NCBI GenBank assembly: GCA_965372215.1
Contig: CBDVBK010000006.1
Location: 1,647 to 65,646, forward strand
DNA: 64,000 bases
Reading direction: 5' to 3'
Source: an uncultured bacterium
GTDB lineage: Bacteria; Fermentibacterota; Fermentibacteria; Fermentibacterales; JCC-6
The notes under the pieces were generated by a model that was given only the letters and a program-made list of their open reading frames with translations, made no database searches and was not told the origin of the DNA. The position numbers and the translations under genes are program-made. Shown piece by piece: positions 785 through 46,158 of this stretch. The stretch's first letter is position 1. Each line of letters opens with the position of its first letter.

Positions 785-1768
785 TTATACTTGGGAAAAT
801 ATGCTGTTTCTGGAAAATTCCCGGAACGGTTTGAAATCAAGATTCCTATTGCTCATTAGGAGCGCAGATGAGTGCACACGGATAAGAAATCCTAACCTGT
901 GTCCGAGGATAATATCCCCTTCATCGGAGATATAACAGCATGAAAAGCCCTCCGGGAACTGAACGCCTGGAATGAAGGAAACAAATACATCGCTGAACAT
1001 CGAAGCGATCACAATGCTGTCGCCACTGCACCAGATGTCCTTCGGTCCTTCCAGAGAACTGTCTATCACATGAAATTCCCATTCACCATTGATGCAACCC
1101 GGATTTCTCCACCAGCCAGCACCTCCTTCGGCGCAGGCAATACCAGCCGCATCAATGAGGGAATCACCGTCCATGTCAACTGCAAAGCACTTCTTTACTC
1201 CGACCTGAATCGTTCCGATATAGTGAACATCGGGAAGAGAACCTCGATTTTCTATCCAGATCACACCGCTTTCAAAGCCTGATGCGAATAAGTCCATATC
1301 CCCATCTCCGTCTATGTCACAAGGATAAATAGATTTAACCCCCGGCATTTTCACAAGGGTCGAAACCGTACCGTCCTGCTTCACAAGAACAACGATTCCC
1401 GGATCAAACAGAGCCACGGCTAATTCCGGAGCGGAAGGAGTACTCCAGAATACCTCGCATATCCTGTCCGGGTTTCCCGGAAGCGGTATCATCCGATCGT
1501 TCATGACAACGGATTCACCTGCAAAGTCTGCCGCAACGAGTTCTCCGTTCCAAAGGCAGATATCACGGGGCTCCAGTATTTTGTAAGGCATAACGTCCAC
1601 TGAACAGCCGTCATCCACAACGCAGATCACGGATCGATCAATACATGCTACCGCGATCCCTCCGGTCAAGGGATGAACAGCAACCGGAATACCAGGCAGC
1701 GGAACCACCTGTACCGCAGAACCAAGAAGAATGAGAAAATTTAGAAGATCAAGAACGAGACGGATCAT
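785..1768 (-). CDS. Secreted FG-GAP/VCBS repeat protein
   Basis: N-terminal hydrophobic signal-like segment (MIRLVLDLLNFLILLGSAVQV). Ca-binding-like repeats DIDGDGDMDLF and VDMDGDSLIDAAG are typical of FG-GAP/VCBS beta-propellers. The ATG overlaps the upstream stop (ATGA at 1765-1768). Confidence 0.7.
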   Translation of the reverse strand: MIRLVLDLLNFLILLGSAVQVVPLPGIPVAVHPLTGGIAVACIDRSVICVVDDGCSVDVMPYKILEPRDICLWNGELVAADFAGESVVMNDRMIPLPGNPDRICEVFWSTPSAPELAVALFDPGIVVLVKQDGTVSTLVKMPGVKSIYPCDIDGDGDMDLFASGFESGVIWIENRGSLPDVHYIGTIQVGVKKCFAVDMDGDSLIDAAGIACAEGGAGWWRNPGCINGEWEFHVIDSSLEGPKDIWCSGDSIVIASMFSDVFVSFIPGVQFPEGFSCCYISDEGDIILGHRLGFLIRVHSSALLMSNRNLDFKPFREFSRNSIFSQV

Positions 1769-2292
1769 GCGGGAAGCTCCCAGGGATGATCCGCATCTTT
1801 CAGCAGATATCCTTCAGGTATCTTAACCGGTGTGAATCCGCAGTCCTGCCAGAATTTTCCCATTTTCAGGTGCCCAAGAACCACAGCATTTGAGATCATT
1901 TCTCCCCATGAAGCCGGAACGACTGCGATCAGCGGTTCCATATTCGGAGCAAAGGCCACCGAGGGAAGATGTGGTCTTTGAATGAAGCACTTGATAATTC
2001 TGTCTACCTGATGCGGTTTCACAAGGGGTATATCACATGGAAGAAACATCACGCAATGATCGTGTAGAGCATGCAGAGCAGCTTCGATCCCTCCCATTGG
2101 TCCATTTCCGGAATGGATGTCCGCAATTCCTCCGGGACCGGAAGTGAAAACATCGATGCAGCTGGAAGAACTTAGAATCTTCAACGCGTTCTGCTCCATG
2201 GACAGACCGCTGGAAAGTATCACTGCCCGTTTGTCTCTTCCCATCCTGCCTGATTTCCCGCCTGCAAGCACCACTCCGTATACTTCGGTCAT
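1765..2292 (-). CDS. MobA-like nucleotidyltransferase (NTP_transf_3; possible molybdenum cofactor guanylyltransferase)
   Basis: N-terminal VVLAGGKSGRMGRDK signature of the MobA/MocA family. 175 aa. In the same operon as a molybdopterin oxidoreductase. 4-nt overlap on both sides. Confidence 0.7.
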   Translation of the reverse strand: MTEVYGVVLAGGKSGRMGRDKRAVILSSGLSMEQNALKILSSSSCIDVFTSGPGGIADIHSGNGPMGGIEAALHALHDHCVMFLPCDIPLVKPHQVDRIIKCFIQRPHLPSVAFAPNMEPLIAVVPASWGEMISNAVVLGHLKMGKFWQDCGFTPVKIPEGYLLKDADHPWELPA

Positions 2293-3050
2293 TTAAGCGG
2301 CCTTTCGAAATTCGATATCCTGAATCCGCTCCGAACCTTCCTGATCGTGTTTACGATCCAGAGAGTGAAATAACTCCAGAAAAGAACTGAGAAAAGGACT
2401 GGAAAAAAGGACAGTAAGGCAGCTATTGCAGCCATGTTCATCCAGGGGTGAAACATCGCGGAAAGCAGATATTCGATTCTGCCGGATCCTGGATTCCTGA
2501 CAAACAGCATTTTCAGAGATTTCTGTTCACCCTGACCTTCCCGGGTCCCGATGTGATTAAAGAAACTTTCAAGGAGGGTTTCTACCGCACAGAATCTCAC
2601 TACAAGCCAGAGGCCAGCCATAATCGTTCCGGCTATGACAGCTTTGAGATCACCGCTCAGGTTGTACATACCCCATCCCCAGGCTCCATAAAAAAGTCCC
2701 CTGGAACCTGTATCCCCAAGCTTATCTATGAACTCTCCGCCTGCTATGCTGCTGCTTCCCGTGAATCTGGCCACCTCTCCGTCGCATGCATCAAGGACGA
2801 AGGAAAGCTGAAGAAGAAAAGCTCCCCCGATGAAACAGGCGGGTTTGCCAGGAGCAAAGAGAGCAGCTCCAGCACAGGCAAGAACACCCTTAATCAGAGA
2901 GACGCAGTTCGCAGACAGCCCCATGCGTAGGAAAAGCGCTGTCAGATAAATGGAAAATCTGCGTATGATCAGTTTCCTGTAAAGACAGATATCCAGATCG
3001 TCCGGCTGGCAGATAGCTCTGAGCCTGGAAACATCAGGAATTTGCTTCAT
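2289..3050 (-). CDS. CDP-alcohol phosphatidyltransferase family membrane protein
   Basis: Motif DACDGEVAR-x9-G-x3-D-x3-D (D-x2-DG-x2-AR...G-x3-D-x3-D) and multiple hydrophobic helices. Confidence 0.85.
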   Translation of the reverse strand: MKQIPDVSRLRAICQPDDLDICLYRKLIIRRFSIYLTALFLRMGLSANCVSLIKGVLACAGAALFAPGKPACFIGGAFLLQLSFVLDACDGEVARFTGSSSIAGGEFIDKLGDTGSRGLFYGAWGWGMYNLSGDLKAVIAGTIMAGLWLVVRFCAVETLLESFFNHIGTREGQGEQKSLKMLFVRNPGSGRIEYLLSAMFHPWMNMAAIAALLSFFPVLFSVLFWSYFTLWIVNTIRKVRSGFRISNFERPLK

Positions 3051-3796
3051 TCTTTCTCCACTGTGGTCACAAGCACTGCACCGGGCAGCCGGTTCAGGGG
3101 CCGGAGTAGGATCGAAATCAGCAGGTAAACAAAGTGATACAGTCTCCTTGCCAGCTTATGCTCCTCAAAAAGATATGATACAAACCTGAACTGAAAAAGC
3201 GCTCCCATTCTCTGCTCCCTTACCCGTATACCCTTCATCGGCAGAAGGGGTTCAAGATTGGTGAAGGTTCGCTTGGGTCCGTAGCGCCAGCGTTCCTTCC
3301 TGATCAGATATTCCTTGACAGCCTCATGCAGGCGGCAGCCCTCCCAGGCAGTGATAACCACCATCCGGCCGCCCGGACATGTCACTCTTACCATCTCTCT
3401 GAGGATCATTTCAGCTCCGGTATCATCAAACAGATCAACGACACCTGTGCTGTAAACAAGATCGAAGCTTCCATTTTTGAAGGGAAGTTCACGAGCATCG
3501 GTAACAGCTGCTCCCGCTCCGGTCTCCTTTGTCAGTTCCGCTGCGGTCTGTGAGATATCAACGCCATACACCATTGGCGTAACCCGTGAAAGCCTGCCGG
3601 CTACAGGACCCGATCCGCATCCAACCTCAAGTATGCGTGTATGCTCCGCTATTACGCAGGTTCTCTTCAGTATTTCAATAACAAGTTTCTGAAGATCTCC
3701 ATACGCGGCGAGTGTCCTTCCTGCCCTGTGGATAAGCCCATTCTGTGAGGTTCTGTTCTTCCAGATATGTTCCCAGGTTTCAGGCTGCTGTGTCAT
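3047..3796 (-). CDS. Class I SAM-dependent methyltransferase
   Basis: Motif I ILEVGCGSGPVAG, followed by the VYGVDIS and LVYSTGV post-motifs. Confidence 0.8.
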   Translation of the reverse strand: MTQQPETWEHIWKNRTSQNGLIHRAGRTLAAYGDLQKLVIEILKRTCVIAEHTRILEVGCGSGPVAGRLSRVTPMVYGVDISQTAAELTKETGAGAAVTDARELPFKNGSFDLVYSTGVVDLFDDTGAEMILREMVRVTCPGGRMVVITAWEGCRLHEAVKEYLIRKERWRYGPKRTFTNLEPLLPMKGIRVREQRMGALFQFRFVSYLFEEHKLARRLYHFVYLLISILLRPLNRLPGAVLVTTVEKE

Positions 3797-4473
3797 GAAA
3801 ACTTCATCCCTGCCGCTGCAAGATCCTCAGGTGTGTCTACTTCTTCCCAGACGAACTGATCGGTGATCCATGCTTCTGTCCTGAGGGAGCCTGCGGCAAG
3901 ATTCACCGCATCATCAAAATTCGCTGAAGGATCATCTGACAAATGCTCTGAAAGCCTGCGTAAGATTCGGTGATTACGGACAAAGAACATACCCATGGAT
4001 TCTCCTGCGGATCTGGAAACAGGCAGAGATTTTGAGAGGCGAATAAGTCGGCTCCCGCGAACCTCCGCTTTCATTGCTTCTTCATCAGCTCTGTTTCGAG
4101 GGTCCACAGGTACCGCTATGTCTCCCCGGCTGCTGAATGTACCCCGGGCGAGACCGGCTTCCCAGACCAGATCCCCGTGAATGATCAGGAGAGAACTGTC
4201 GGAAGGAGGCATCGCGCAGAAAGAAGAGAAAGTACCGGGAGTATTCCACCGTGGATTGTAAACGGTTTTCAACCCCAGAGTCCTGCAGGATTCTGTTACA
4301 ACATCAGACCCGTAACCGGTAGCTACCGTGATTTCTTCAGATGCAATTCCAGCCCGGATCAGAGAATCCACATGACGGCTGAGAATGGTTTTTCCGCTCA
4401 CTTCGACCAGTATCTTTGGTATTCCCGCGCCCAGCCTGCTTCCAATCCCGGCTGCCAGTATCAGAACTTTCAT
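3793..4473 (-). CDS. Nucleotidyltransferase (sugar-/alcohol-phosphate cytidylyl- or nucleotidyl-transferase, LicC/IPCT-like)
   Basis: N-terminal MKVLILAAGIGSRLG...PK signature of NTP_transferase enzymes. C-terminal WEEVDTPEDL motif. Confidence 0.75.
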   Translation of the reverse strand: MKVLILAAGIGSRLGAGIPKILVEVSGKTILSRHVDSLIRAGIASEEITVATGYGSDVVTESCRTLGLKTVYNPRWNTPGTFSSFCAMPPSDSSLLIIHGDLVWEAGLARGTFSSRGDIAVPVDPRNRADEEAMKAEVRGSRLIRLSKSLPVSRSAGESMGMFFVRNHRILRRLSEHLSDDPSANFDDAVNLAAGSLRTEAWITDQFVWEEVDTPEDLAAAGMKFS

Positions 4474-5687
4474 GCTTTTATCAGGTTCCTTTCATACATC
4501 TTTTTCATTACACGGAAGCCAATCATTCCCGGCGCGGAGGGCTTTACAAATTCCTTTATCGGTATTCTACAGTTCAAAGAAATTTCAGCAGGTGAAAACG
4601 GAGTTGCGGGAAGCCTACGTATCAGACCAAATCTGAGCCTTCTCAACCCTGATCCGGCAAGTCTGCCCCACCGAACGCCGTTACGGAAGGCCCGTATCAT
4701 CTCGGATATCCCTCCAGCAGCCTCCCAGGGAAAGATATTCAGTGATACTTCAATCCCATTTGAAACAGCTGCGGTAATTGCCGATTTGAGCTGGTCTGGA
4801 TCGTAGTCCTTTCCGATTCTTCTCATCTGATCCGCCGTTCCTCCGTCGGGGGAAAAGGAAACAGCGATGCAGCCTGCACCGCGAATATGTGAACCGTATT
4901 CTCCGTCAAAATCCAGTGCGGAATGATATGCCTCCCAGGTAATACCGGAGTTGAGAGATCCGACCATAGAGGCCACTTCCATTCCCCTTGCCTTTCGATT
5001 GTTCAGAACGGGAGCGATCAGGAATAAATGGCGGGTGCCCTGAGCAGCCAGCTGTTGAATATCCTGTCTGACCAGTTCAAGGGATCTTTCCTGAACACTC
5101 CTGCCCGATATTGCGGAGTAGGAGCAATAGGTGCATCTGCGATCACATCCCCTGTTAACCTCCACACCCATCGCCAGATTTTTTTCAAAAGGAATGTAAG
5201 ATGATAAAGAAAGAAGATCGAACCGTGGAGAAACAAAATCCCCCTTTGCGCCATGATAGAGTCCGCACGCTCTGTTCCTGACCAGTTCATCCACAATGAG
5301 CTCACCATGCCCTGTAACCCCGCAGTGGATATGTTGAGAATGATCCATTATCTGCTCCGCGAAAATGCTGAAACCGGCTCCTCCTGCAAGTATGTGAGCA
5401 TCCGGACACAGTCTGGAGGTGAGTTCGATCTGCTCAAAACACCGGGGAATGTAACTGTATCGATCAAAACAGGAGGTGGTGTCGGCATTTCTCAGGCTGA
5501 ATCCAACAGCGTCAGGCTTATAATCCGCAATGACAGATCTGAGCCTCTCCATTGGTGACCGGCTTTGGTTAAGATCCTCTATCCGGATTTCGTGTGAAGC
5601 CAGTGAAGCGGCGATGGTGGCAAGCCCAAGGGGCAGTACCGGGTGCTGCTCTCTTCCGAGCCAGGCCTGAATCAGCAGAATTCTCAT
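4470..5687 (-). CDS. B12-binding-domain radical SAM protein
   Basis: N-terminal Rossmann-like MRILLIQAW...PLGLATIAASL...YKPDAVGFS segment typical of the cobalamin-binding domain. CX3CX2C motif CDRRCTYC at residues 181-188. Confidence 0.8.
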   Translation of the reverse strand: MRILLIQAWLGREQHPVLPLGLATIAASLASHEIRIEDLNQSRSPMERLRSVIADYKPDAVGFSLRNADTTSCFDRYSYIPRCFEQIELTSRLCPDAHILAGGAGFSIFAEQIMDHSQHIHCGVTGHGELIVDELVRNRACGLYHGAKGDFVSPRFDLLSLSSYIPFEKNLAMGVEVNRGCDRRCTYCSYSAISGRSVQERSLELVRQDIQQLAAQGTRHLFLIAPVLNNRKARGMEVASMVGSLNSGITWEAYHSALDFDGEYGSHIRGAGCIAVSFSPDGGTADQMRRIGKDYDPDQLKSAITAAVSNGIEVSLNIFPWEAAGGISEMIRAFRNGVRWGRLAGSGLRRLRFGLIRRLPATPFSPAEISLNCRIPIKEFVKPSAPGMIGFRVMKKMYERNLIKA

Positions 5688-6340
5688 TACTGCCTGATCG
5701 ATTCAAGAGCCATCATTCTCACTTTTCTATCCTTTTCCGGCCATCTGATGAGATGGGAAGCGGATGTATGGAATGGTCTCTCCGTCCAGACAGGATCCCC
5801 GCAGGAAAAACCGGCTGCAGTTATCTCCCTGAGCCAGTTGTCCGCTGTAAGATGGTGTTCATTTGATCCGTTTCTGAACCGGAGTCTTCTTGCTTCCTCC
5901 TCAAACCCGGTGATTCCCTTTTCGAAACACCAATCCTCCAGAATAAGGAAGATACCATTCGGTTTCAGAATTCTGTGTATCTCGTTCAGAGAGTGCTGTA
6001 GAGCCTTACTGTTCAGGTGGTGCAGGACAGCCATGGCCACTACGCAATCCGCCACACCGTTCCGGAGTGGAAGGGTCTCGGCCCTGCAGTTGAGGAAGAC
6101 GGCGGACGGTCTGACTTCTGAAGCCACAATTAGAAAATCAAGTGTAATGTCCGTGCAGATGTATTTCTCTATAAAAAGAGCTCTCCCCGCGATTGTTCCA
6201 GGCCCGCAGCCGATTTCAACAACAGTATCAGGTGATTTCTTCTTCAGTTCTTCCAGTATGTATCTATCGGCAGCCGATAACATTCTGTTCGCTGTGTACT
6301 CCCTGACCTGCCCGGGGCTCCAGCGTGAATTATCTGTCAT
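5687..6340 (-). CDS. Class I SAM-dependent methyltransferase
   Basis: Motif I VVEIGCGPGTIAG. Methyltransf_11-like LKPNGIFLILE motif. Confidence 0.8.
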   Translation of the reverse strand: MTDNSRWSPGQVREYTANRMLSAADRYILEELKKKSPDTVVEIGCGPGTIAGRALFIEKYICTDITLDFLIVASEVRPSAVFLNCRAETLPLRNGVADCVVAMAVLHHLNSKALQHSLNEIHRILKPNGIFLILEDWCFEKGITGFEEEARRLRFRNGSNEHHLTADNWLREITAAGFSCGDPVWTERPFHTSASHLIRWPEKDRKVRMMALESIRQ

Positions 6341-7485
6341 GCCCGGTGACCTATGGACCCGGTCAGTGGAGACCCCCCTCTGGTTACCAGCATACCGTAC
6401 CTCTTCTTCAGTTCCCTGCGGGAAACGGGACCCTTCGGGAAACTCCTCTCCACATCATCCAGAAAACGATCAAGTATGTGTCTGACCCACATGCAGTGGC
6501 GGGGATCCGGTTTTCCGGAGTCTCCGAGATGTATCCCGTCCCATGCACAGCCTCCACCGCAGATTCCCGCAGCGTGGCACTTTGAACAGTAGTCCATCGC
6601 TACAGGAATTCTGTTTGACCAGTCCTCCGTTGATCTCCCGCTTATGCAGTTTGATGTTCTGCCGTCGGGATGAAAAACGATTTTGCCCCCAAGGGCAGCG
6701 CAGTCTCTGTGCCTGTACACACCGCTGATGATCGGATCAATCCTCCGGGCGATCTGATCTACAAAGATCCCGTGTTTCAGAGCAGTGTCGAATACATTGC
6801 TGATTGCATCAGTGTATGCTTCAGCCGAGATTGGATCAAAGCTTCCAGGAGTCCAGTGAAGAATGTTGAACCCCATACTTACCGGCATGAATCTCTCATA
6901 CATCTGCTCCATCCCGATGGCAATGTTCTTCCAGTTGTGATGGCTGACAACGGTTGATATTCCGAATGATACCCCGGCTTTTCCAAGAAAATCCATCCCT
7001 TCCGCAGCTTCAGCCCAGGAACCGCATCGCTGTGAATTGTGAACACTTTCCATTCCGTCCAGCGAAACAACCGGAGATACTCCCATCAGCTTCAGCTCAG
7101 ACGCGATCTCCATTGTGATCAGTGTGGCATTTGTAAAAAGAACCTTCGGGGAATCAACTCTTTCAAGAATACGGAAAGCTACATCGGGAACAAGGAGAGG
7201 CTCTCCACCGGTTACCATCACCAGCCTGCCAGCGGGTGCTTCCTCAGCAGCTCTTATTACCCGGTCAGCGGTTTCAACGGTCATATCATCGGGAGAATCC
7301 CCGGAAAGTCTCACATTGCAGTAGCTGCACGAGAGATTACATCGTCTGGTTACAACAGCCTGAACTGCTTTAACCTCAGCGTGAGGAACGGGCGGAACAG
7401 CAGCATCGTAATCTTCCAGTGGTTCTCCCACGGATATCCGCAGTGTTACAGAATCAAACCAGGTATTGCCGTGCTTCCGGATCAA
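6337..7485 (-). CDS. Radical SAM / SPASM-domain protein (copy 3 in transcription order)
   Basis: CNLSCSYC (C49/C53/C56, nt 7318-7341). C-terminal SPASM-like CSKCHAAGICGGGC. Confidence 0.85.
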   Translation of the reverse strand: MIRKHGNTWFDSVTLRISVGEPLEDYDAAVPPVPHAEVKAVQAVVTRRCNLSCSYCNVRLSGDSPDDMTVETADRVIRAAEEAPAGRLVMVTGGEPLLVPDVAFRILERVDSPKVLFTNATLITMEIASELKLMGVSPVVSLDGMESVHNSQRCGSWAEAAEGMDFLGKAGVSFGISTVVSHHNWKNIAIGMEQMYERFMPVSMGFNILHWTPGSFDPISAEAYTDAISNVFDTALKHGIFVDQIARRIDPIISGVYRHRDCAALGGKIVFHPDGRTSNCISGRSTEDWSNRIPVAMDYCSKCHAAGICGGGCAWDGIHLGDSGKPDPRHCMWVRHILDRFLDDVERSFPKGPVSRRELKKRYGMLVTRGGSPLTGSIGHRA

Positions 7486-8765
7486 TTATCCACACTCTGC
7501 TCTTCGCCGATCATGGTTCCAACGGGCATGGGCATGGCGCCGGTATCAAAACCGCCTGCCGGAATGAGCGATTCCCTGCCATGCTCAACCGACCTTTCTA
7601 TCATCCATCTGAGGAATGCCCTCTCGAAGGAGCACCTTTCGGGTCTGATCCCGTTCAGTACTCCGGATGCATGGTATGCATCGTATCTGCATCCACCTCC
7701 GCAAAGGGCAAGGGCAGGACAGTTAATGCAGGCGGAAAAATTCACAGGAGACAGATCTCTGAACAGGGTGAGCAGATCCTTTACGTCATCCGTGTCTTCA
7801 AGGTTTACACCGTGATCACCGCAGACGGTCATGCAGTCACAGGTGCCTGCAATTCCCCCCGGAACCTGTACCAGTCTACCCCCGGCTGAAGCACAGTCCT
7901 TCAGCCTTGGAGACCGTCTGACGAAGGGTCTTACTCTTCTGGCGAGCTGTTCTATATACATGCCCCGGTCGATGGCTATTTCCATGCAGGAGACAACAGC
8001 CTCGAGAATCCCGGGATCGGTGACCTGAAGCGGATTTATCCTGCCGCCCTTTAAGGGATGCAGCCAGGGATTCAACCCCATGTCATCCGGCTGGAAGTAC
8101 TCCATGAGCCACTGAAAATCCTCTCTGACAGTTGCAATATTTCTTTCTGTGACTGTGACGGATATGCCCACTCTGCAGCCGGCATCCCTGAATACATGGA
8201 AAGCTTCTTCAGCTTTTTCAAACGAATTTCTTCCGTGAATCAGCGGTCTTGCACTGTTGTGTACAGCAGGAGGACCATCGATTGACACAATTATGAATGT
8301 GTTCTCTTCTGCTAGTTCCCTCGCCAGTAAGGGATCCACTGGAACCCCTCCCGTGGCGGCGGACAGGTTTATTCTGGCGCCGCTGCTTCTCACCCGGCGG
8401 ATTACATGAAGAACAAGATCTGGCCTCAGAAACGGCTCTCCCCCGTATAACAGAAGGTCAGCCGGCCCACTTCCCATCAGCTCAAGTCCCGCATCTATCT
8501 CCGCGGGGGTCATATCCCCCTGCTGAACATCCTGCAGAAAACAGTACCCGCAGCTTCTTACGCAACGTGTTGTCAGGAACATGCAGCCCATTATAATGCC
8601 GCTGTTCTCACCGGCTTTTCTCCGGTATAAAGCAAGCAGTTCCTGCTCACGTTCCGGAGAAGGGCATTCCTCAGGAGAATTGTAGAGTTCGAGAGTAAGG
8701 GAATGAAAGTAAACCTTTTCACCACTCACCTCGTAAGCGTGCAGAAACGATGATACGCAGCTCAT
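7482..8765 (-). CDS. Radical SAM / SPASM-domain protein (copy 2)
   Basis: CVRSCGYC (C68/C72/C75, nt 8541-8564). C-terminal CINCPALALCGGGC. Confidence 0.85.
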   Translation of the reverse strand: MSCVSSFLHAYEVSGEKVYFHSLTLELYNSPEECPSPEREQELLALYRRKAGENSGIIMGCMFLTTRCVRSCGYCFLQDVQQGDMTPAEIDAGLELMGSGPADLLLYGGEPFLRPDLVLHVIRRVRSSGARINLSAATGGVPVDPLLARELAEENTFIIVSIDGPPAVHNSARPLIHGRNSFEKAEEAFHVFRDAGCRVGISVTVTERNIATVREDFQWLMEYFQPDDMGLNPWLHPLKGGRINPLQVTDPGILEAVVSCMEIAIDRGMYIEQLARRVRPFVRRSPRLKDCASAGGRLVQVPGGIAGTCDCMTVCGDHGVNLEDTDDVKDLLTLFRDLSPVNFSACINCPALALCGGGCRYDAYHASGVLNGIRPERCSFERAFLRWMIERSVEHGRESLIPAGGFDTGAMPMPVGTMIGEEQSVDN

Positions 8766-9784
8766 TCCCCGAATTCCGCTATTATGGTACAGAGATACGA
8801 AGCGTGTATGTAGTCGTCTCCAGACAGCACGGGTTTCTGAGCAAGTTCCGGCACAGAATGTTCGTTCTTCATGAAGCAGTAGATGTCAGGTTCGGATTTC
8901 CCCGTATATAGCCGTCGTCCGGAACAGCCTCCGCGGCATACATCATACCAGTCGCAGCCATCACAGAACTCAGGTATGGTAAGTTCGCAGCCAGAGGGAA
9001 GATCCATCTCCCCGGAAAGGAAATTCTCCATGGTAACTGGACTGTGATCCCAGTACACGCAGGGCATGATCTCTCCGCCTGGTCTCAGCCGCAGGGAAGA
9101 CACACCGCAGGGACTGCCTTTCATGGAGATCTCCCTGGAACTGTTTCCCGCCGTCAGCGCCGCGTTTACCACCGGCTCGGAGCAAGCAACAGCCTCAGCT
9201 TCAATGAATAGGTTCTTTATGGCTTGCCAGAAGGAATCGTAATCAGGCTCATATTCTTTCCCTTTGATAGCCTTGTATACATTCACCCGGAGTGACACAC
9301 CAAGGTTCCTGCAGAGGGAGCACATTTCCTCCATCCGGGAGGCATTCTGCTTCATGAGGCACATAGCAACAGAAGCGGTAACACCAAGTGATCTGCACCG
9401 CTCAATTCCTCTGAGTACCATATCGTAGGCACCTTCAGCCCGCCAGCTGTCATGCAAATCTCTCTGTGGAAAGTCCAGAGAGAAATCCACATCGTGCAGT
9501 CTTTTAATCTCCTCATCCGACATGGCTTCAATACTGGGGCCAGCCGTGGTGAGAGCAACCGGAATATTCAATCTGAATAATTCATCAAGAATATTGTGAA
9601 AACCGGGATATAGACAGGATTCACCGGTACCTAGATTTATGGATTCCACACTGCACGAGGAAAGGAAACGGAACAGCATATCGCTGTCCATTTCCACAGG
9701 ATTCTGTCCTCCTCCTGAATAGCAGTGTCTGCACGAAAATGTGCAGGCTGAAGTAAGTCCGACACCTAACGCAATACTGCTCAT
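8762..9784 (-). CDS. Radical SAM / SPASM-domain protein (copy 1)
   Basis: CTFSCRHC (C14/C18/C21, nt 9722-9745). C-terminal CDGCDWYDVCRGGC. RBS-like AAGGGGA in the 11-nt gap upstream. Confidence 0.85.
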   Translation of the reverse strand: MSSIALGVGLTSACTFSCRHCYSGGGQNPVEMDSDMLFRFLSSCSVESINLGTGESCLYPGFHNILDELFRLNIPVALTTAGPSIEAMSDEEIKRLHDVDFSLDFPQRDLHDSWRAEGAYDMVLRGIERCRSLGVTASVAMCLMKQNASRMEEMCSLCRNLGVSLRVNVYKAIKGKEYEPDYDSFWQAIKNLFIEAEAVACSEPVVNAALTAGNSSREISMKGSPCGVSSLRLRPGGEIMPCVYWDHSPVTMENFLSGEMDLPSGCELTIPEFCDGCDWYDVCRGGCSGRRLYTGKSEPDIYCFMKNEHSVPELAQKPVLSGDDYIHASYLCTIIAEFGE

Positions 9785-9795
9785 CTATTCCCCTT

Positions 9796-10551
9796 CTAGA
9801 AAAATGTCAGGTTGCGCCTATGATAGATTATCAGCGCACTAAGGGCAATATTCGCCTGATGGAGATAGCCCCTCCAGTCAGCAGGTATATCAAAGAGATC
9901 GATGGTCAAAGACCCTCCGTAACCCGCTTCAGCCAGGCCACGGAACAGATATCCCCAGTTTATATCCCCCTGACCGGGGAGCAGGTGTCTGTGTTCCGAA
10001 CGGTTCATTCCTTCCACATGCACATGAAATATCCTGTTTCCCAGGGAACTGATATTTTCAACCGTACACCGCTCCTGAATATGGAAGTGACCGGCGTCCA
10101 GATTGATACCTGCAAGGGGTCCCAGGGAAGCTATATACATGTTGAAGTCGTCAATGCCGTCAAGCACAGTATCAGGTTCCGTTTCCCAGGCCGGTTTAAT
10201 ATTCAGCCTGCAGCACAGGTCATAAAGATCAGCCGCTTCCATGAGGAAACTTTTCCTGTCCCGAACGGGAGACCCGAGTACCGCCACGGAAACGGAGCAT
10301 TCCGCCGCCATCCTTATAGCCCGCTTTCCGTATTTCAGCCTTGTGACTGGATCGTCATTTTTCCCATGATAGCTTACTGATGAGATATCCAATCCCATTT
10401 TCCTGGCCAGTTCGAGAGTATCCGGTGAAGCTTCAGGGTGCTCAAGACAGAACTCAACAGTCTGATATCCAGCCTGGACGATACCTTCAAGAGCTTTTCT
10501 CAGAGGCAGATGACTTAGACCGGACGTGCGGAATCCGATCTTCTCAAACAT
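9796..10551 (-). CDS. Sugar phosphate isomerase/epimerase (xylose-isomerase-like TIM barrel)
   Basis: AP_endonuc_2-type pattern: VEFCLEH..., HVHVEG...HRHLLPGQGDINW...GYGGSLTIDLF. Confidence 0.75.
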   Translation of the reverse strand: MFEKIGFRTSGLSHLPLRKALEGIVQAGYQTVEFCLEHPEASPDTLELARKMGLDISSVSYHGKNDDPVTRLKYGKRAIRMAAECSVSVAVLGSPVRDRKSFLMEAADLYDLCCRLNIKPAWETEPDTVLDGIDDFNMYIASLGPLAGINLDAGHFHIQERCTVENISSLGNRIFHVHVEGMNRSEHRHLLPGQGDINWGYLFRGLAEAGYGGSLTIDLFDIPADWRGYLHQANIALSALIIYHRRNLTFF

Positions 10552-12889
10552 TTTTTATCCGAACCAGACACTTTGTGTGACAAACAGCCTCGCATGGAGG
10601 TTCGCTGCATCTGAGGCAGGCGGACGTGAATCCCGGAGTCCACTCTCCGTCCTTCAAACGAACCACCAGACCGTGAATACCGGTATGAGCCACACAGGCC
10701 ACTGCGCAGGCCCGGCAGCCTGTGCACCATATGGTTCTTACATCCTCTGTAATTCCTGATTCAGCTGCCCTGCTTCCCGGCACATTCCCGTATTCTTCCG
10801 GAGCGTCAACAGGTCCGGTGATCCGGCAGGGCAAACAGCGGAACGGATATCCGAGCCCCCCTCTTCCGTGCATTCCGGAAGTAAGCAGGTCATTCACATT
10901 CAAGCCAGGACCGTTCCAGCCATGGGCAGCAGATATTACACCTTTTTTTATCAGTGGTGAAGAGATGACAACTCTTTTACAGCTTCCCCATGGTGATTCA
11001 AGAAGCACCCAGTCGCCGGAGTTGATCTCATGCGGCATATCATCAGGGTGTATCTCAACCGCGGGTAACGGTTCAAGTTCACGCAGGTGCTGAATATTCC
11101 GGTGTTCTCCATGGAAATAGAGGGGGCTTCTGGCTCCTGAGGTTAGCTTCAGAGGATATTCCCTTCCCGGATTCGATGTGGGGGGAGGAACATACCAGGG
11201 AGCAGGAATCAATCCGGACATTTTCATCAGTCCGGGCTGCAGTTCTATTTTCCCGGTGGGTGTATTAAACCTGCCCCTTGAGAGATGCTTGCTGTATTCA
11301 GTTCCAGGCATGAGCCACCCCTTCCGGCACAGCTCGCTCCAGCTATATCCGGAGGGTTGAAGGATATGATCATACCACCCGGTCACATCAGACCAGGGAA
11401 AGTGCTCCTCGGCAACGATTCTGCCAAAGGAAAGGACAACATCCATGTCCGAACGACTTTCACCAATGGGATCTATCACTCTGTCGAAAGCCGCAAGCTG
11501 ATACCACCAGTTCCGAATGCCCGAACGTTCCAGACAGGTACATACGGGAAGAAAGATATCCGCCAGTTCATTTGCAGCAGGACTCATGAACAGATCGACC
11601 ATTACTGAAAGTCCTGTTCTGCTCAGAAGATGTCCCACCCGCTTCGGCTCAGCAAAACCGTTTGCTGTCAGCCCCGTTCCCTGATACCATGCGCATTCTA
11701 TACTGCGACCTTTCTCAACCTCATTCAGCAGAACATCCGCATGTGCATAAGGAACTCCGCAGCCGATCATGGGATATTCCGAAATACCGGTTTTCGTTTT
11801 CTGAAGATCTTCCGCCAGATCTCTGTCCACACCCCTTCTGCTTATCCCGAAGGGGTCAGTCACAATGACATTCCCGCCGGGTACATCAAGATTTCCGGAG
11901 AGGACAACGAGCGAGGTCAGAGCGTGAGCAGTTCCAAGAGCTGACGGAGACATATCCACTGAGACACCCCAGTGGAGTGCAGCTGGTTCTGATCGACCGT
12001 ACAGCAGAGCGGCACTGACAATGTCCTCAACAGGAACTCCGCATTCAGCAGACGCCCTTTCGGGTGAGAAGGATTTCACCTGCTCCAGCACCTCATCCGC
12101 TCCGTTCACCCATTTCTCTGTGAATTCGGTCTTCACCATATCCTCTTTGAAAAGCACATGAAGAAAGGCCATGGCAAGAGCAGCATCCGTTCCAGGATCT
12201 ATCGCAAGATGCACATCTGCTCTTCTTGCCATCCAGGTCTCTCTGGGATCCACAACTACCATCCTTGAGCCCAGTTTCAGACAGTGAACGATCCACTGTC
12301 CCAGAAAGCCGTCGGGATTGGAGTCTACAGGGTTTGAGCCCCAGACCAGAATGCACTCCGGAAGACGCCACCGGGGATCATTGTATCTCTGTGGAAAATA
12401 CTGTGAGCAGTCGGCAACCATGAAACCGCCGAAGACTGCGTGTGTAACACTCATCCTGGGCATCAGGCAGGCGCTGCCGCTGCCGGGTCCCAGAGCGTAG
12501 TATTCGGAACTTCCAAAACCATAGGCAAGGCGGGAGAGCCAGGGACCGATATCCCTCCCGGTACCCTTGCAGAAGATTACGCTGGAAGGACCGTGCTTAT
12601 CCCTCGCTTCAAGAAATGCATCCCCGGCCATTCCCAGGGCTTCTTCCCAGGATACTTTTCTCCAGCCTGCTCTGTTTTTTATCAAAGGGTACAGCTGCCT
12701 GTCAGGATGATAAACCGTTTCCGGGAGAGCAGCCCCTCTGGGACACAGAGACCCGCCGTTAAAAGGGTTCGACGGATCCCCGCGGATTTCCACGACTCTT
12801 CCATCGTCGATCAGCGCTATTATCCCGCAGCCGTTGTGACAGCCGGGAGGTGTTGTGCAAATGGTTCGTACAGTCCGTAAAATGCTCAT
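10544..12889 (-). CDS. Molybdopterin (bis-MGD) oxidoreductase, DMSO-reductase superfamily, with fused C-terminal 2x[4Fe-4S] ferredoxin-like domain
   Basis: N-terminal Fe-S motif C11-x5-C17-x3-C21-x27-C49 (..SLCPRG..). Long MopB core. Molydop_binding-like segment (VEIHPDD...GDWVLLESPWG). Last 60 aa carry CxxCxxCxxxC and CxxCx4CxxxC. No twin-arginine signal. Confidence 0.85.
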   Translation of the reverse strand: MSILRTVRTICTTPPGCHNGCGIIALIDDGRVVEIRGDPSNPFNGGSLCPRGAALPETVYHPDRQLYPLIKNRAGWRKVSWEEALGMAGDAFLEARDKHGPSSVIFCKGTGRDIGPWLSRLAYGFGSSEYYALGPGSGSACLMPRMSVTHAVFGGFMVADCSQYFPQRYNDPRWRLPECILVWGSNPVDSNPDGFLGQWIVHCLKLGSRMVVVDPRETWMARRADVHLAIDPGTDAALAMAFLHVLFKEDMVKTEFTEKWVNGADEVLEQVKSFSPERASAECGVPVEDIVSAALLYGRSEPAALHWGVSVDMSPSALGTAHALTSLVVLSGNLDVPGGNVIVTDPFGISRRGVDRDLAEDLQKTKTGISEYPMIGCGVPYAHADVLLNEVEKGRSIECAWYQGTGLTANGFAEPKRVGHLLSRTGLSVMVDLFMSPAANELADIFLPVCTCLERSGIRNWWYQLAAFDRVIDPIGESRSDMDVVLSFGRIVAEEHFPWSDVTGWYDHILQPSGYSWSELCRKGWLMPGTEYSKHLSRGRFNTPTGKIELQPGLMKMSGLIPAPWYVPPPTSNPGREYPLKLTSGARSPLYFHGEHRNIQHLRELEPLPAVEIHPDDMPHEINSGDWVLLESPWGSCKRVVISSPLIKKGVISAAHGWNGPGLNVNDLLTSGMHGRGGLGYPFRCLPCRITGPVDAPEEYGNVPGSRAAESGITEDVRTIWCTGCRACAVACVAHTGIHGLVVRLKDGEWTPGFTSACLRCSEPPCEAVCHTKCLVRIKNV

Positions 12890-13153
12890 ACTCCCTCAGT
12901 ATTATCAGATGGAATATGCCTGATAGGAGCTTCAATGAATAGTACTGCATTCCCCTTTGGATGCAATGCGGTGTTTCTACTGTACCGGGATCGATACTCT
13001 GGCATTACCACCATCCCTGTTGGAGAAGCATGCTGTCAGGTAGAATCAGATCAGAATCATCATATGGACATTGAAGATTAAATCTTATATAACAATATGT
13101 ATCATATTATTACATCTTACTGGATTTTAGGAATGCTGTTGTTCACTCTCAAT

Positions 13154-15610
13154 ATGAAACGGAACCAAAATATGAAAACACTAACTTTTGTTCTTCTGAT
13201 TCTCTGCGGAACCATGTTCGCGGAATGGATCGATTTCGGAATTGAAGGCATTGATCATGCCACACTCTCCGTTGTGGAATCCACTCCATCCGGTATGATT
13301 ATTGATATCACTATTCCAGGAATCAGCATAACTCCTTCTCCGGAGAATGGCATTAATTTTTCAAACCTCAGTATTCCGGGAACCACAATTACAGCTCTGG
13401 AACCTGGCTACCCTATGTTTCCGAAAGTCTCATTCCTCGCTGCGCTTCCATCCAATCCATCTATTACGTGCACTGTTGAATCGATGAGAACAATCAGCCT
13501 GGGGCAGATCATACCTTTTCCCATGCAGCCGATACTGCTTGAGAATGCTACGGAATCAGCCGCTTTCACGTACATTCCGTCCGCATATGAAACCGGAACC
13601 TACCCTTCGGAAATAGTACAGTATAATGTTGATGGCATCCTTCGCGGCATTACAATGGGTCGATTTGTGATAAACCCCGTAACCTGGGACGCTGAAACAG
13701 ATTTGCTCACCGTATACGCTGAACTCCGCGTCAGGATTGAATTCGGAGGCTCAGTAACCGTTGACAAAAGACTCTACTCACGATTCTTTGAACCGACTTT
13801 CAACCAGTCTCTGATAAACGCTGATATTCTCGGTGAACCGGACCGTACAGTGTATATGCATTCAAGCGGTCCTGTCTATGCCCATTCGCGCGAAGAGGCA
13901 ATGGATTTAGATGGCGCTGATCTTCTTATTATAGCGGGTGATGATTTCGTAGAAACGATGATTGAGGATTTCGTTACAGCGAAGTTCGAACAGGGTTATC
14001 TTCCGGCAGTCGTCTCGGCAGGAACCTGGACCTATGCCGAAATCGCTGAATACATAAAGATCGCATACGATACATGGGAACTTCCACCCTCGTTTATTCT
14101 TACAATCGGAGACGGGCCGGAACTCACTGCATACTACGCTCCTACAGGTATCTGGAGTGATAATCGCTACGCCTGTGTAGATGGTCCCGATTACATGGCG
14201 GATATTTTCCATGGCAGGTTTGCCACGCCGACGGATTACTATCCGAATGTACAGGAGAAGCAGCTTAAATGGCAGTTCGATCCGGTAATGAATCTGGATT
14301 TCTGGAACAACATATTATGTGCAGGAGCACTTGAAACCGGTGGTGATAATACCGCGAACAGATGGTTCCTTTTTACATGCGAAGCTGTTCATGACACCTA
14401 CGAAGACCTTTTCGGGAAAACAGCTCACCGCATGTATCTGAAAGACACTTCCGCTTCTCCGCCATATTATTACCATCCTCACCTTCCGTCAGCAGGCCAG
14501 GAAATACCCTCTGAAATAACTTACACCGGATCAACGTCGGGTGTTATAGATGTATTTAACAATGGCGTATTTATGGTACAGCACAGGTCACATGGCTCTG
14601 TAACAGGATGGAGTACTCCTTCATTCCAGATATCGGATTTTTCAAGCCTTACAAACGGAGACAATACTCCAACAGTCTTCAGTTTCAACTGCAGTACAGG
14701 AAAATTCTACAATGAAACATGTTTTGCCGAGTGTCTGGTAAGAATTGAAGATGGGGCGGTCATGGTTGTCGCTGCCTGCGGATCATCTTACAGCTACTTC
14801 AACGATTATATGATCTACGGCTGTCACGCAAGTTTCAATGATGATTTCATTGAACCTCCCTACACTTATACGAATCCTTCCGGAGGCTACCTCGCGGGAC
14901 AGATGATGACGGATGGAAAACTGGAGATGCAGGTTTCCGCCCCGTTCAATCCTTACGGCAGCTGGGAGTTTTATGCAGAAGTTGAATGGGATCTGTTCCT
15001 TGTCTTTGGTGATCCCACAATGGACATGAGAACAAAGGTTCCGGTTCCACTCAGCGTTGATGCGCCGCTGACTCTACCTGAAGGTTCTACCGAAACAGTA
15101 TTCATCGTCTCAATGCCTGATGAGGGAGCAACCGAAGGAGCGCTTGTCTGTCTTCGCAAAGAGGATGAAAGCCTTTATGCAACCGGTCTTACCAACTCAT
15201 ACGGACAGGTGACACTCACCTTCGATCCGATTGTCACAGCGACACAACTGGACTGGATGGTTACCGCTCATAACGCTCTGCCGGAAACTGGCATAATCAA
15301 CGGTGTCGGAGTAGCAGAGCGGGATGGAGCTGTCGAGATCAGCATCGGCACACCGTTCCCAAATCCGAGTACCGGTATGATTCTCTTCCCTGTTTCACTT
15401 GATATTACAGAGAATTTAGAGTTGACCATATACGACCTGTCCGGCCGCGCGGTTGAGACCGTTCACTCCGGCGAACTGGCAGCCGGTACTCATGAAATCG
15501 TCTGGAATGGATGTTTCGGTGATAATTTTGCTCCTGCGGGTATCTATCTTGCAAGATATGTTACGGGAAATGGAAATACCGGAACTCTCAAGATTGTTCT
15601 TATGAAGTAG
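13154..15610 (+). CDS. Gingipain-like (peptidase C25 family) secreted protein with T9SS-type C-terminal sorting domain
   Basis: ORF 13097..15610. Signal-peptide-like MKRNQNMKTLTFVLLILCGTMFA starts at ATG 13154 (alternative ATG at 13172). The central region resembles the C25 caspase-like fold (family call moderate). The C-terminal ~80 aa (LELTIYDLSGRAVETV...GTHEIVWNG...AGIYLARY) match the FlgD-Ig/T9SS CTD pattern. Confidence 0.7.
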   Translation: MKRNQNMKTLTFVLLILCGTMFAEWIDFGIEGIDHATLSVVESTPSGMIIDITIPGISITPSPENGINFSNLSIPGTTITALEPGYPMFPKVSFLAALPSNPSITCTVESMRTISLGQIIPFPMQPILLENATESAAFTYIPSAYETGTYPSEIVQYNVDGILRGITMGRFVINPVTWDAETDLLTVYAELRVRIEFGGSVTVDKRLYSRFFEPTFNQSLINADILGEPDRTVYMHSSGPVYAHSREEAMDLDGADLLIIAGDDFVETMIEDFVTAKFEQGYLPAVVSAGTWTYAEIAEYIKIAYDTWELPPSFILTIGDGPELTAYYAPTGIWSDNRYACVDGPDYMADIFHGRFATPTDYYPNVQEKQLKWQFDPVMNLDFWNNILCAGALETGGDNTANRWFLFTCEAVHDTYEDLFGKTAHRMYLKDTSASPPYYYHPHLPSAGQEIPSEITYTGSTSGVIDVFNNGVFMVQHRSHGSVTGWSTPSFQISDFSSLTNGDNTPTVFSFNCSTGKFYNETCFAECLVRIEDGAVMVVAACGSSYSYFNDYMIYGCHASFNDDFIEPPYTYTNPSGGYLAGQMMTDGKLEMQVSAPFNPYGSWEFYAEVEWDLFLVFGDPTMDMRTKVPVPLSVDAPLTLPEGSTETVFIVSMPDEGATEGALVCLRKEDESLYATGLTNSYGQVTLTFDPIVTATQLDWMVTAHNALPETGIINGVGVAERDGAVEISIGTPFPNPSTGMILFPVSLDITENLELTIYDLSGRAVETVHSGELAAGTHEIVWNGCFGDNFAPAGIYLARYVTGNGNTGTLKIVLMK

Positions 15611-24840: not shown

Positions 24841-24889
24841 AAAAAGAACCGGTCACTGTATTCAACAATCAGACAATGCTGGTGAGAAC

Positions 24890-39208: not shown

Positions 39209-39557
39209 TGGTGGAGGCGGCGGGATTCGAACCCGCGTCCGAGAACAGGGATTCATCGGGTCTACATGTTTAGGCCGGATTAATTTCATCCTGATTCGGC
39301 TCCGGTCGGCCTTGTCGGACTAGCTCCCATTTAATCTCGCTGCTTACGTCTGAAAGCGGGGCTTCACAGCCAGCCTTCCTTCTTGCGCCCTACCCCCGAT
39401 CGGAAGACAATCCCGGAGGGGACGGCTACTCCTGTTTACGGAGCAGCGTGCCGTAAATTATGCGGCAGTTGTATCTATCCGCCAGTTTTACGAGGTAGCG
39501 GTACCTCGACATGCAATCGGTGAATCACTTCTGAACCCGTCGAGACCTGTCGCCCCC
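39209..39557 (-). ncRNA. ssrA: tmRNA (SsrA)
   Basis: The minus strand reads 5'-GGGGGCGACAGGTCTCGACGGG...GGACGCGGGTTCGAATCCCGCCGCCTCCACCA-3', i.e. the canonical tRNA-like acceptor/T-arm with encoded CCA. Length about 349 nt. Confidence 0.9.
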
Positions 39558-42862: not shown

Positions 42863-42877
42863 TCCTCCTTTTGTTTA

Positions 42878-46154: not shown

Positions 46155-46158
46155 CGTA

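Follow-up and report, generated by a model that had tools for sequence, protein, structure and literature searches.

The closest described systems to the gene cluster reported here associate a CTP:alcohol-phosphate cytidylyltransferase with a membrane CDP-alcohol phosphotransferase, as does the IPCT/DIPPS pair of Archaeoglobus and the Thermococcales, the maker of di-myo-inositol phosphate. In the fosfomycin pathway (Fom1/Fom3), a B12 radical S-adenosylmethionine (radical-SAM) methylase acts on a CMP-linked alcohol, and BtrN, the calditol synthase Cds, HpnJ and AprD4 are radical-SAM enzymes that act on cyclitols or sugar head groups. For Bacteroides vulgatus and Prevotella, a route to inositol lipids relying on an NTP transferase, a CDP-alcohol phosphatidyltransferase and a HAD protein has been proposed and is unconfirmed (PMC9246714). 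In this study, we analysed a 64,000-nucleotide (nt) stretch of DNA from an uncultured bacterium of the Fermentibacterota (contig CBDVBK010000006.1, positions 1,647 to 65,646 of the forward strand; hereafter the window). It carries a cassette of twelve genes, G01 to G12, that is best read as an uncharacterised variation on CDP-alcohol head-group pathways, and there is a substantial chance that what it makes belongs to a new class of lipid head groups.

An earlier note on this DNA, made from its letters alone, had described twelve minus-strand open reading frames (ORFs) running from 12889 down to 785, and the ORF listing gives exactly those. Protein lengths are in residues (aa).

10544-12889, minus strand: G01, 781 aa, cytoplasmic Mo/W-bisPGD oxidoreductase with a fused C-terminal 2x[4Fe-4S] ferredoxin domain
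9796-10551, minus strand: G02, 251 aa, metal-dependent xylose-isomerase-like TIM barrel (sugar/inosose isomerase, epimerase or dehydratase type)
8762-9784, minus strand: G03, 340 aa, radical-SAM protein with a SPASM-type auxiliary-cluster motif, without N-terminal extension
7482-8765, minus strand: G04, 427 aa, radical-SAM/SPASM-type protein
6337-7485, minus strand: G05, 382 aa, radical-SAM/SPASM-type protein, TTG start
5687-6340, minus strand: G06, 217 aa, class I SAM-dependent methyltransferase
4470-5687, minus strand: G07, 405 aa, class B radical-SAM protein (B12-binding domain), likely C-methylase
3793-4473, minus strand: G08, 226 aa, putative alcohol-phosphate cytidylyltransferase, IPCT type
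3047-3796, minus strand: G09, 249 aa, class I SAM-dependent methyltransferase
2289-3050, minus strand: G10, 253 aa, putative integral-membrane CDP-alcohol phosphotransferase
1765-2292, minus strand: G11, 175 aa, MobA-like molybdenum-cofactor guanylyltransferase, accessory
785-1768, minus strand: G12, 327 aa, predicted exported or membrane-anchored FG-GAP/VCBS beta-propeller-type protein
12890-13096, no strand assigned: 207-nt divergent intergenic stretch preceding G01, presumed to be a promoter region

Read on the minus strand, ten of the eleven junctions overlap, by 8 nt for G01/G02 and by 4, 4, 4, 1, 4, 4, 4, 4 and 4 nt, in order, from G03/G04 through G11/G12; the sole gap, the 11 nt AAGGGGAATAG between G02 and G03, contains a Shine-Dalgarno-like GGGG(A). 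The overlaps and the ribosome-binding site in the gap were as first described, except that the junction reported as ATGA at 7482 is TTGA (7482-7485), the start codon of G05 being TTG, as it is in the homologue from the related locus L002. Hidden Markov model searches against Pfam likewise reproduced all the domain calls (Molybdop_Fe4S4, Molybdopterin and Molydop_binding; AP_endonuc_2; three Radical_SAM; two Methyltransf_11; B12-binding with Radical_SAM; two NTP_transf_3; CDP-OH_P_transf; FG-GAP_3), the CDP-alcohol transferase only marginally; PF13186 went unreported, the SPASM cysteines themselves being present. None of the twelve proteins matched an NCBIfam model at its curated cut-off. Upstream of G01, the region 12890-13096 holds only ORFs of 3-15 codons, which are not conserved, and its equivalent in L002 measures 68 nt. 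Rfam searches of the whole window detected no riboswitch upstream of the operon and no family in 12890-13096, and sigma-70 and terminator scans showed no enrichment over shuffles. The overlaps are not special evidence of a unit: coupling of this kind is ordinary in this genome because the dcw cell-wall operon (41705-55444, minus strand) is built alike, with 4-nt and 1-nt overlaps. The case for more than chance rests on the fact that the twelve genes are conserved together.

Tblastn searches with the twelve proteins against all fetched loci retrieved the same genes, in the same order, in about 27 distinct assemblies and down to about 40% identity. The carriers are mostly Candidatus Fermentibacterota (Aegiribacteria, Sabulitectum, Fermentibacteraceae and Hyd24-12 metagenome-assembled genomes, MAGs; down to about 41-55% identity), with a few other anaerobes and further unlabelled lineages (L027, L033, L048, L049 and L107); relatives at 81-89% identity are labelled Aegiribacteria or Fermentibacteria. 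The genes around the cassette differ even among close relatives, and the flanks are non-syntenic in a relative that is 86% identical. Two fusions were found: the Mo enzyme G01 is fused to the TIM barrel G02 in L004 and P0066, and in L027 the nucleotidyltransferase G08 and the methyltransferase G09 form a single protein of 486 aa. The earlier note had argued for a single unit; the retained gene order, the unrelated flanks and the two Rosetta-stone fusions bear this out, and the block proved to be co-localised in related genomes. The twelve genes are one functional unit and not a chance juxtaposition. Their third-position GC content is 0.48-0.55, to be compared with 0.36-0.47 for the dcw genes and 0.38-0.50, lower on average, for the other sampled genes of the window. 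A compositional island with non-syntenic flanks, the cassette behaves as a self-contained unit that is probably horizontally mobile.

Several genes vary among the clusters. G11 is found in only about half of them: it is present in L004, L009-L011, L018, L027, L033 and L048, and absent from L002, L005, L013-L017, L019, L020, L022, L049 and L107. The B12 radical-SAM gene G07 is missing from L049 and relocated in L107. The FG-GAP gene G12 lies upstream and divergent in L033, yet still adjacent to the cluster; in L048 and L107, no G12 was observed downstream of it. In a deltaproteobacterial MAG (L028, the same as L032), homologues of nine cassette genes are rearranged in two divergent operons; the MAG also has a separate 114-aa ferredoxin gene, additional B12 radical-SAM genes and an LpxL-type acyltransferase gene. 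In Fermentibacteraceae-type clusters, about 700 nt are inserted between the B12 radical-SAM and nucleotidyltransferase genes (L005 11147-11850; also L015, L016, L019, L020 and L022, and shorter in L018). This insert holds a conserved antisense ORF of 167 aa, with no Pfam match and with 3-nt periodic conservation; after it comes a TTCTGTTAAGG...GTGAATTGAC motif, which is strongly conserved and might be an internal promoter. In the window, the gene divergent from the cluster (13097-15610, plus strand) encodes a gingipain-like C25 peptidase with a type IX secretion system (T9SS) C-terminal sorting domain. We considered this neighbour as a part of the system and set it aside: it is common only to the closest relative, L006; a different C25 peptidase gene lies just upstream of the L027 cluster, and the linkage is unsupported in the other loci.

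The earlier note had singled out a cytidylyltransferase and a CDP-alcohol transferase acting as a pair, and both assignments gained support. G08 carries an NTP_transf_3 domain and the N-terminal GxGxR(L/M)G signature (LAAGIGSRLG, residues 5-14). Among the NCBIfam models, it best fits the IPCT half of IPCT/DIPPS, over residues 1-221; against the IPCT/DIPPS equivalog NF041135 it scores 62.7 bits for a cut-off of 580 bits, covering the IPCT half only, and it fails this cut-off. Its best match in the Protein Data Bank (PDB) is the A. fulgidus IPCT (2xme/4mnd), which aligns end to end (E 2e-10; G08 residues 1-221 with 2xme residues 19-228), and the second is the phosphonate cytidylyltransferase PntC (6pd1). 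G10 is encoded by a separate gene, two places downstream of G08. Its Pfam score for CDP-OH_P_transf (PF01066) is marginal, 23.3 bits for a cut-off of 22, and all eight catalytic residues of the motif are present (D87x2D90G91x2A94R95x9G105x3D109x3D113), with a spacer of 9 residues where 8 is usual. This motif is conserved across the cluster-type homologues; its last Asp is lost in a distant group (L028, L030 and L031). An AlphaFold model of G10, built with 24 homologues, is confident (pLDDT 89.7) and all-helical. Foldseek searches with this model placed AF2299, three PIP synthases and IPCT-DIPPS first (prob 1.0, TM 0.47-0.57), and ranked phosphatidylserine and PGP synthases below these.

Taken together, these comparisons lend good support to the prediction that G08 and G10 form an activation/transfer pair of the DIPPS or Kennedy type. 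G08 would convert CTP and an X-phosphate into CDP-X, and G10 would transfer X-phosphate from CDP-X to the hydroxyl of an acceptor, yielding X-phospho-acceptor and CMP. The resemblance to IPCT/DIPPS thus lies in the two activities, in the full-length match of G08 and in the match of the G10 model. The cassette differs from it in that the two proteins are unfused, that eight tailoring enzymes surround the pair, that the cassette holds no phosphatase gene, that a MIPS gene is found neither in the cassette nor in the 64-kb window, and that the hosts are mesophilic anaerobes. The Bacteroides/Prevotella inositol-lipid cluster, compared by gene content only, follows the same two-enzyme logic and belongs to the same FCB superphylum, and its HAD gene has a counterpart in HAD fusions of the wider family of G10-like transferases; in contrast to the cassette, it adjoins MIPS and is devoid of radical-SAM, Mo and methyltransferase genes. 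A link to sphingolipids through the aminotransferase encoded at 22341-23513, taken as a serine palmitoyltransferase, was rejected, this protein being an ordinary class I/II aminotransferase.

The pair is accompanied by four radical-SAM enzymes. G03, G04, G05 and G07 score above the cut-off of PF04055 and each has a CX3CX2C motif (C14/C18/C21, C68/C72/C75, C49/C53/C56 and C181/C185/C188, respectively). G03, G04 and G05 further carry C-terminal SPASM-type cysteines, CX2CX5CX3C...C: C274X2C277X5C283X3C287...C303 in G03, C346X2C349X5C355X3C359...C378 in G04 and C300X2C303X5C309X3C313...C331 in G05. PF13186 was unreported at E<=0.01, and partial NCBIfam SPASM alignments reach the C-terminus of these proteins. 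G04, in which Pfam detects Radical_SAM and Fer4_12, is paralogous to G05 (about 30% identity). The best partial NCBIfam matches of the three proteins (FibroRumin, PapB, HxsB, MftC, AhbC/D, NirJ and MoaA) extend mainly over the generic core, and their scores are far under the cut-offs. PDB sequence searches with G03-G05 and G07 gave generic matches or none, the best for G03 being SkfB with 37 bits.

G07 has the class B architecture, PF02310 (45.2 bits for a cut-off of 32.1) followed by Radical_SAM. Its best curated match is TIGR04072, 'lipid biosynthesis B12/rSAM' (143.8 bits over residues 2-314; the cut-off of 360 is not reached), and BzaD follows with 126 bits. The G07 model (pLDDT 86.5) matches TsrM, AprD4, OxsB, MgmA, TokK and CysS; AprD4, a non-cobalamin relative that acts as a diol dehydratase, matches equally well. 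G07 is a likely C-methylase but may have a non-methylating role. G06 (Methyltransf_11, 60 bits; best NCBIfam match the DVU_1556 family, 46 bits for a cut-off of 155) and G09 (Methyltransf_11, 66 bits) have the features of generic class I methyltransferases. The weak matches to the DVU_1551/DVU_1556 families led nowhere, as no paper mentioning those loci was found.

These tailoring enzymes recall several known systems. As in fosfomycin biosynthesis, the cytidylyltransferase gene adjoins a class B radical-SAM gene; unlike it, the cassette has no PEP mutase or other phosphonate genes, and the activated product would be used by a CDP-alcohol transferase, where a hydrolase removes CMP in the fosfomycin pathway. 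BtrN, Cds, HpnJ and AprD4 illustrate the relevant anaerobic chemistry (radical oxidation, ring chemistry and polyol deoxygenation), and the structural search with G07 placed AprD4 among its best matches; however, there is no membership at the sequence level, G03-G05 and G07 remaining under all the curated cut-offs. TIGR04072 is associated with ladderane-type lipid clusters, but G07 is well under its cut-off and no ACP or FabF-type lipid genes lie nearby. The earlier note could name no pathway for this gene set, and we found no characterised cluster or paper either: curated families, solved structures and the literature do not account for the tailoring set, and the literature searched (the gene combination; Fermentibacteria with radical SAM; the Hyd24-12 and Aegiribacteria genome papers) does not mention the cluster.

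The first gene of the cassette encodes a molybdenum enzyme. Molybdop_Fe4S4, Molybdopterin and Molydop_binding are all above their Pfam cut-offs in G01, which places it in the Mo/W-bisPGD (DMSO reductase) superfamily. It has an N-terminal [4Fe-4S] site (C11-x5-C17-x3-C21-x27-C49) and, as the earlier note had seen in describing a fused-ferredoxin Mo enzyme, a C-terminal 2x[4Fe-4S] ferredoxin motif (C722-C774). The protein is predicted to be cytoplasmic, because it has no Tat leader, the Fe4S4 domain beginning at residue 5. No NCBIfam equivalog was found at cut-off. Among PDB entries, G01 is most similar to acetylene hydratase (2e7z, 171 bits) and the polysulfide/thiosulfate reductase PsrA (2vpw, 162 bits). 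Cys141 aligns with the cysteine of the SVSLCTAPR segment of PsrA, which we take to be the Mo ligand Cys173, so that Cys141 is presumably the Mo ligand of G01. In acetylene hydratase, the catalytic Asp13 lies directly after the second cluster cysteine; His18 of G01 aligns with this aspartate (CH versus CD), and PPGCH is found in all the G01-type sequences inspected that have a complete N-terminus. With a histidine in place of the catalytic aspartate, G01 was rejected as an acetylene hydratase. A formate dehydrogenase supplying electrons to the radical-SAM enzymes was also rejected: the score against TIGR01591 is far under the cut-off (194.5 versus 666 bits), and the active site reads Cys141-Leu142 and not (Se)Cys-His.

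By these alignments G01 belongs to the acetylene-hydratase/catechol-dehydroxylase clade, in which acetylene hydratase has the catechol dehydroxylases as its sister group (PMC7028382). It shares with this clade the best solved structure, a cytoplasmic location, a single [4Fe-4S] N-domain and the Cys ligand; it differs by His for Asp, by the fused 2x[4Fe-4S] domain and, in some lineages, the fused TIM barrel, and by its place in a biosynthetic operon rather than a catabolic locus. The cluster-associated G01 proteins form a group of their own at at least 45% identity. The non-cluster relatives (about 40% identity; about 38% for those of Gordonibacter) are stand-alone enzymes whose genes neighbour those of MFS transporters in loci of catabolic appearance, in some cases together with a 111-aa ferredoxin gene. 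From the clade and the nature of these relatives, the most economical guess is that G01 performs a reductive dehydroxylation or a hydroxyl transfer fed by its fused 2x[4Fe-4S] domain. As for lineages whose Mo enzyme lacks that domain, a separate ferredoxin gene was found in L028 (the 114-aa protein) and none in the L005-type insert, which holds the antisense ORF. We know of no precedent, and the searches made here revealed none, for a Mo-bisPGD enzyme of this clade in an anabolic operon or fused to a TIM barrel.

Two side observations concern G01. In a 5.4-Mb genome (L029, 1-22232), at least four G01-like Mo-enzyme paralogues stand in tandem; after each of the two closest come genes for a 111-aa ferredoxin and an MFS transporter. 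The region further encodes a MalT-type regulator and an AthL-like enzyme (pyrogallol hydroxytransferase type), and it resembles an island for polyphenol catabolism. At its edge, the window encodes a SelB-like selenocysteine elongation factor (62614-63996, minus strand), and a SelA is encoded near the L107 cluster (L107 19662-20765); as judged from these genes, the organisms use selenocysteine, yet the Mo enzyme of the cluster has Cys at the ligand position.

G02 (AP_endonuc_2, 69.6 bits) retains the metal-site pattern of its family. It has weak and equal NCBIfam matches to ketose 3-epimerases, IolO and IolE, and its PDB matches are TM0416, MJ1311 and tagatose/psicose epimerases. Its gene is beside G01 in every locus, and their fusion in two lineages implies consecutive steps. 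G11 (NTP_transf_3, 65.6 bits) has MobA (TIGR02665) as best NCBIfam match, with 60.9 bits for a cut-off of 151.85 that is not reached. It has the LAGGKSGRMGRDK motif, and its N-terminus (VVLAGGKSGRMGRDK) carries the LAGGxxxRMGxDK signature that we take to be that of E. coli MobA. As G11 is MobA-like and missing from many otherwise complete clusters, we assign it to the supply of cofactor for G01: it most likely makes the guanine-dinucleotide cofactor and does not activate the product. The earlier count of two nucleotidyltransferases thus holds for the domains, but only one of them would belong to the pathway, G11 being dispensable. G12 has an FG-GAP_3 domain (30.6 bits), a hydrophobic N-terminus and DxDxDG loops, and no PDB or NCBIfam match; 44 positions, including C42, C165 and C212, are at least 90% conserved among 16 homologues. 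These features point to an exported protein, a frequent but not universal companion of the cassette.

Which genes make up the cassette, that they are conserved together, where they are fused, and what family, fold and motifs each enzyme has are matters of observation. From them we infer a class of substrate, an order of steps, a chemistry for each tailoring enzyme and an acceptor, and propose an anaerobic pathway to a tailored alcohol-phosphate group that is moved onto a membrane-embedded acceptor, most likely a lipid; we give this proposal an even chance. The group itself would most likely be the phosphate of a cyclitol or polyol that has been deoxygenated and methylated; since the close matches of G08 and G10 all act on inositol phosphate, we favour a cyclitol or a polyol derived from a sugar as the alcohol. 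Family-level associations lean in the same direction, toward a cyclitol or polyol and a lipid head group. In a first step, G08 would use CTP to activate an alcohol phosphate drawn from central metabolism, giving a CDP-alcohol. Soluble enzymes would then remodel the alcohol independently of O2, probably while it is phosphorylated or nucleotide-bound: G03-G05 by radical oxidation, rearrangement, or C-C/C-O radical chemistry; G02 by an isomerisation, epimerisation or dehydration adjacent to a carbonyl; G01, with its fused ferredoxin domain and a guanine-dinucleotide cofactor provided by G11, by removing or shifting a hydroxyl; G07 by adding a C-methyl group, and G06 and G09 by adding O- or N-methyl groups. 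Finally, G10 would move the alcohol-phosphate from CDP to the hydroxyl of the membrane-embedded acceptor, most likely a glycerolipid or ceramide in the Kennedy style, with release of CMP, and the exported G12 would act on or with the product outside the cytoplasm.

A bolder version of this proposal holds that the product is a novel class of membrane-lipid head group, the phosphate of a deoxygenated, C-/O-methylated cyclitol or related carbocyclic polyol, made without oxygen. The G01-type Mo enzyme, working with G02 and G03-G05, would be the first biosynthetic dehydroxylase of its clade, and the product a signature lipid of the Fermentibacterota. We regard this version as possible, though doubtful.

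Several points weigh against a lipid-bound cyclitol or polyol phosphate. The likeness of G10 to inositol-phosphate enzymes is moderate (TM about 0.5-0.57, 15-21% identity). Neither the cassette nor the rest of the 64-kb window contains an inositol-phosphate synthase or kinase that could be the source of the starting alcohol phosphate. Because all the tailoring enzymes are far under every curated cut-off, their chemistry is guesswork, and the host organisms are uncultured. Lastly, several G10-like relatives stand in glycan settings (TagF-like, GT2, Wzx, Wzy) and not in lipid ones.

This last point leads to an alternative in which the chemistry is the same and the acceptor is an envelope glycan: LPS/O-antigen, capsule, a teichoic-acid-like polymer, or its lipid carrier. 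An exhaustive profile search (E<=1e-10) defined a family of 4,103 G10-like representatives. Only four score 269-405 bits, the next ones reaching 177 bits at most, and we take these four to be the cluster type (the family of the window and the L027-, L107- and L033-like lineages). Longer members are fused to an NTP-transferase, an APH-type kinase, a HAD phosphatase, a TagF-like glycerophosphotransferase (P0270), an FkbM methyltransferase or GINT1_N, the inositol-phosphorylceramide glycosyltransferase domain. The neighbours of G10-like genes include a TagF-like glycerophosphotransferase and a GT2 in Demequina; an NTP-transferase, an Fe-ADH_2 dehydrogenase and a Wzx flippase in Solirubrobacterales; and a B12 radical-SAM gene, a GT21 and an LPG-synthase transmembrane protein in L108. 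A different cluster, L109 (2650-12023), encodes a 722-aa NTP-transferase::radical-SAM::SPASM fusion, an Fe-ADH, a second NTP-transferase, a methyltransferase, a second radical-SAM/SPASM protein, a GT2 and Wzy_C. The Fe-ADH neighbours are polyol-phosphate-type dehydrogenases.

These neighbourhoods are analogies and not orthologies. As a Rosetta-stone fusion, the L109 protein ties nucleotide activation to radical tailoring, and the family repeatedly suggests a dedicated alcohol-phosphate activation step to which radical-SAM enzymes are physically coupled, in support of radical tailoring of a nucleotide-linked alcohol. As to the acceptor, this context points both to a lipid (GINT1_N, HAD, GT21, LPG synthase) and to a glycan (TagF, Wzx, Wzy). 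The glycan alternative draws on the Demequina, Solirubrobacterales and L109 neighbourhoods, on the TagF-like fusion P0270, on the MurJ and LpxL-like acyltransferase genes that adjoin the L032 cluster, and on the exported FG-GAP partner, which suits an envelope role. However, no glycosyltransferase, flippase or polymerase gene lies in or beside the Fermentibacterota cassette, whose flanks vary; the closest structural relatives of G10 all use lipid substrates or inositol phosphate; and L108 and the GINT1_N and HAD fusions indicate lipids. We consider a glycan acceptor unlikely.

The same G08 and G10 matches allow a third product, a soluble phosphodiester. The best curated and structural matches include the IPCT/DIPPS pair, and G10 could join the CDP-alcohol to a second soluble alcohol (or its phosphate), yielding a compatible solute like di-myo-inositol phosphate, or a small cofactor. 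In the cassette, however, G08 and G10 are unfused and separated by a methyltransferase gene, and no phosphatase is encoded that would finish a DIPP-type product. The hosts are mesophilic fermenters of sediments and digesters, not hyperthermophiles, at least ten genes with four radical-SAM enzymes and a Mo enzyme represent a heavy investment for an osmolyte, and the exported partner would be left unexplained. A soluble product thus appears quite improbable.

Sets of B12 radical-SAM and methyltransferase genes also occur in proteusin-type clusters for RiPPs, peptides made by the ribosome and modified after translation. This, together with the peptide maturases among the best partial matches of G03-G05 (FibroRumin, PapB, HxsB, MftC) and the three invariant cysteines of G12, would fit a role of the radical-SAM enzymes, the B12 radical-SAM enzyme and the methyltransferases in the maturation of a ribosomal peptide or of a protein such as G12 or the Mo enzyme. 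But these matches cover mainly the generic core and are 4- to 10-fold under the cut-offs. The cassette does not have the make-up of a RiPP cluster: Pfam detects no PqqD/RRE domain in any of its proteins, there is no protease or exporter gene, and no conserved small ORF that could encode a precursor was found in the cassette, whose genes overlap, or in the upstream gap, 68-207 nt long and unconserved. In addition, some complete clusters have no adjacent G12, and the known RiPP pathways have no use for a cytidylyltransferase or a CDP-alcohol transferase. With neither precursor, RRE, protease nor exporter, peptide or protein maturation is disfavoured and, in our view, highly improbable. The earlier remark that a RiPP precursor, PEP mutase, aminotransferase, glycosyltransferase and isoprenoid genes are lacking agrees with the Pfam domains of the cassette, among which none was found.

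Finally, the block might serve to break down or detoxify a polyphenol or polyol from the environment, with the dehydroxylase-type Mo enzyme at its centre. This reading is scarcely tenable: the nearest non-cluster relatives of G01 (about 40% identity) do occur with MFS transporters, MalT-type regulators and AthL-like enzymes, and catechol dehydroxylases are in the same clade, but the cassette has no transporter or regulator, its methyltransferases, cytidylyltransferase and CDP-alcohol transferase are anabolic, and the cluster G01 proteins group apart.

Other features of the window were noted. The dcw operon is complete (FtsZ, FtsA, MurC, MurG, FtsW, MurD, MraY, MurF, a MurE-like protein and FtsI), with MraW at 55604-56521. 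At 23710-27253 (plus strand), the gene for a radical-SAM enzyme of the AmmeMemoRadiSam system (340 bits for a cut-off of 220) overlaps the next gene by 50 nt. The product of this second gene (820 aa) has a spermidine-synthase-like domain (fused MFS/spermidine synthase type), and no AmmeMemo partner was found near the radical-SAM enzyme among the ORFs examined. A tmRNA gene (39209-39557, minus strand; 149 bits) represents the sole Rfam family of the window.

The Fermentibacterota (Hyd24-12) are uncultured bacteria that are abundant in anaerobic digesters and sulfidic sediments, and to our knowledge nothing is known of their envelope chemistry. The size of the cassette and its spread over the assemblies of the phylum suggest that it probably specifies a defining component of the cell. 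If the proposed pathway is true, its product would be a new phospho-alcohol head group or glycan substituent that could be searched for as a mass-spectrometric biomarker and, should the acceptor be a lipid, a potential sedimentary biomarker of the Fermentibacterota. The pathway would also give a Mo enzyme of the acetylene-hydratase/catechol-dehydroxylase type its first anabolic role, and would comprise four new radical-SAM activities on a nucleotide-linked small alcohol. Beyond this phylum, G10-like transferases are often encoded next to radical-SAM and B12 radical-SAM enzymes, which suggests that phospho-alcohol modifications tailored by radical chemistry form a wider, unexplored class.

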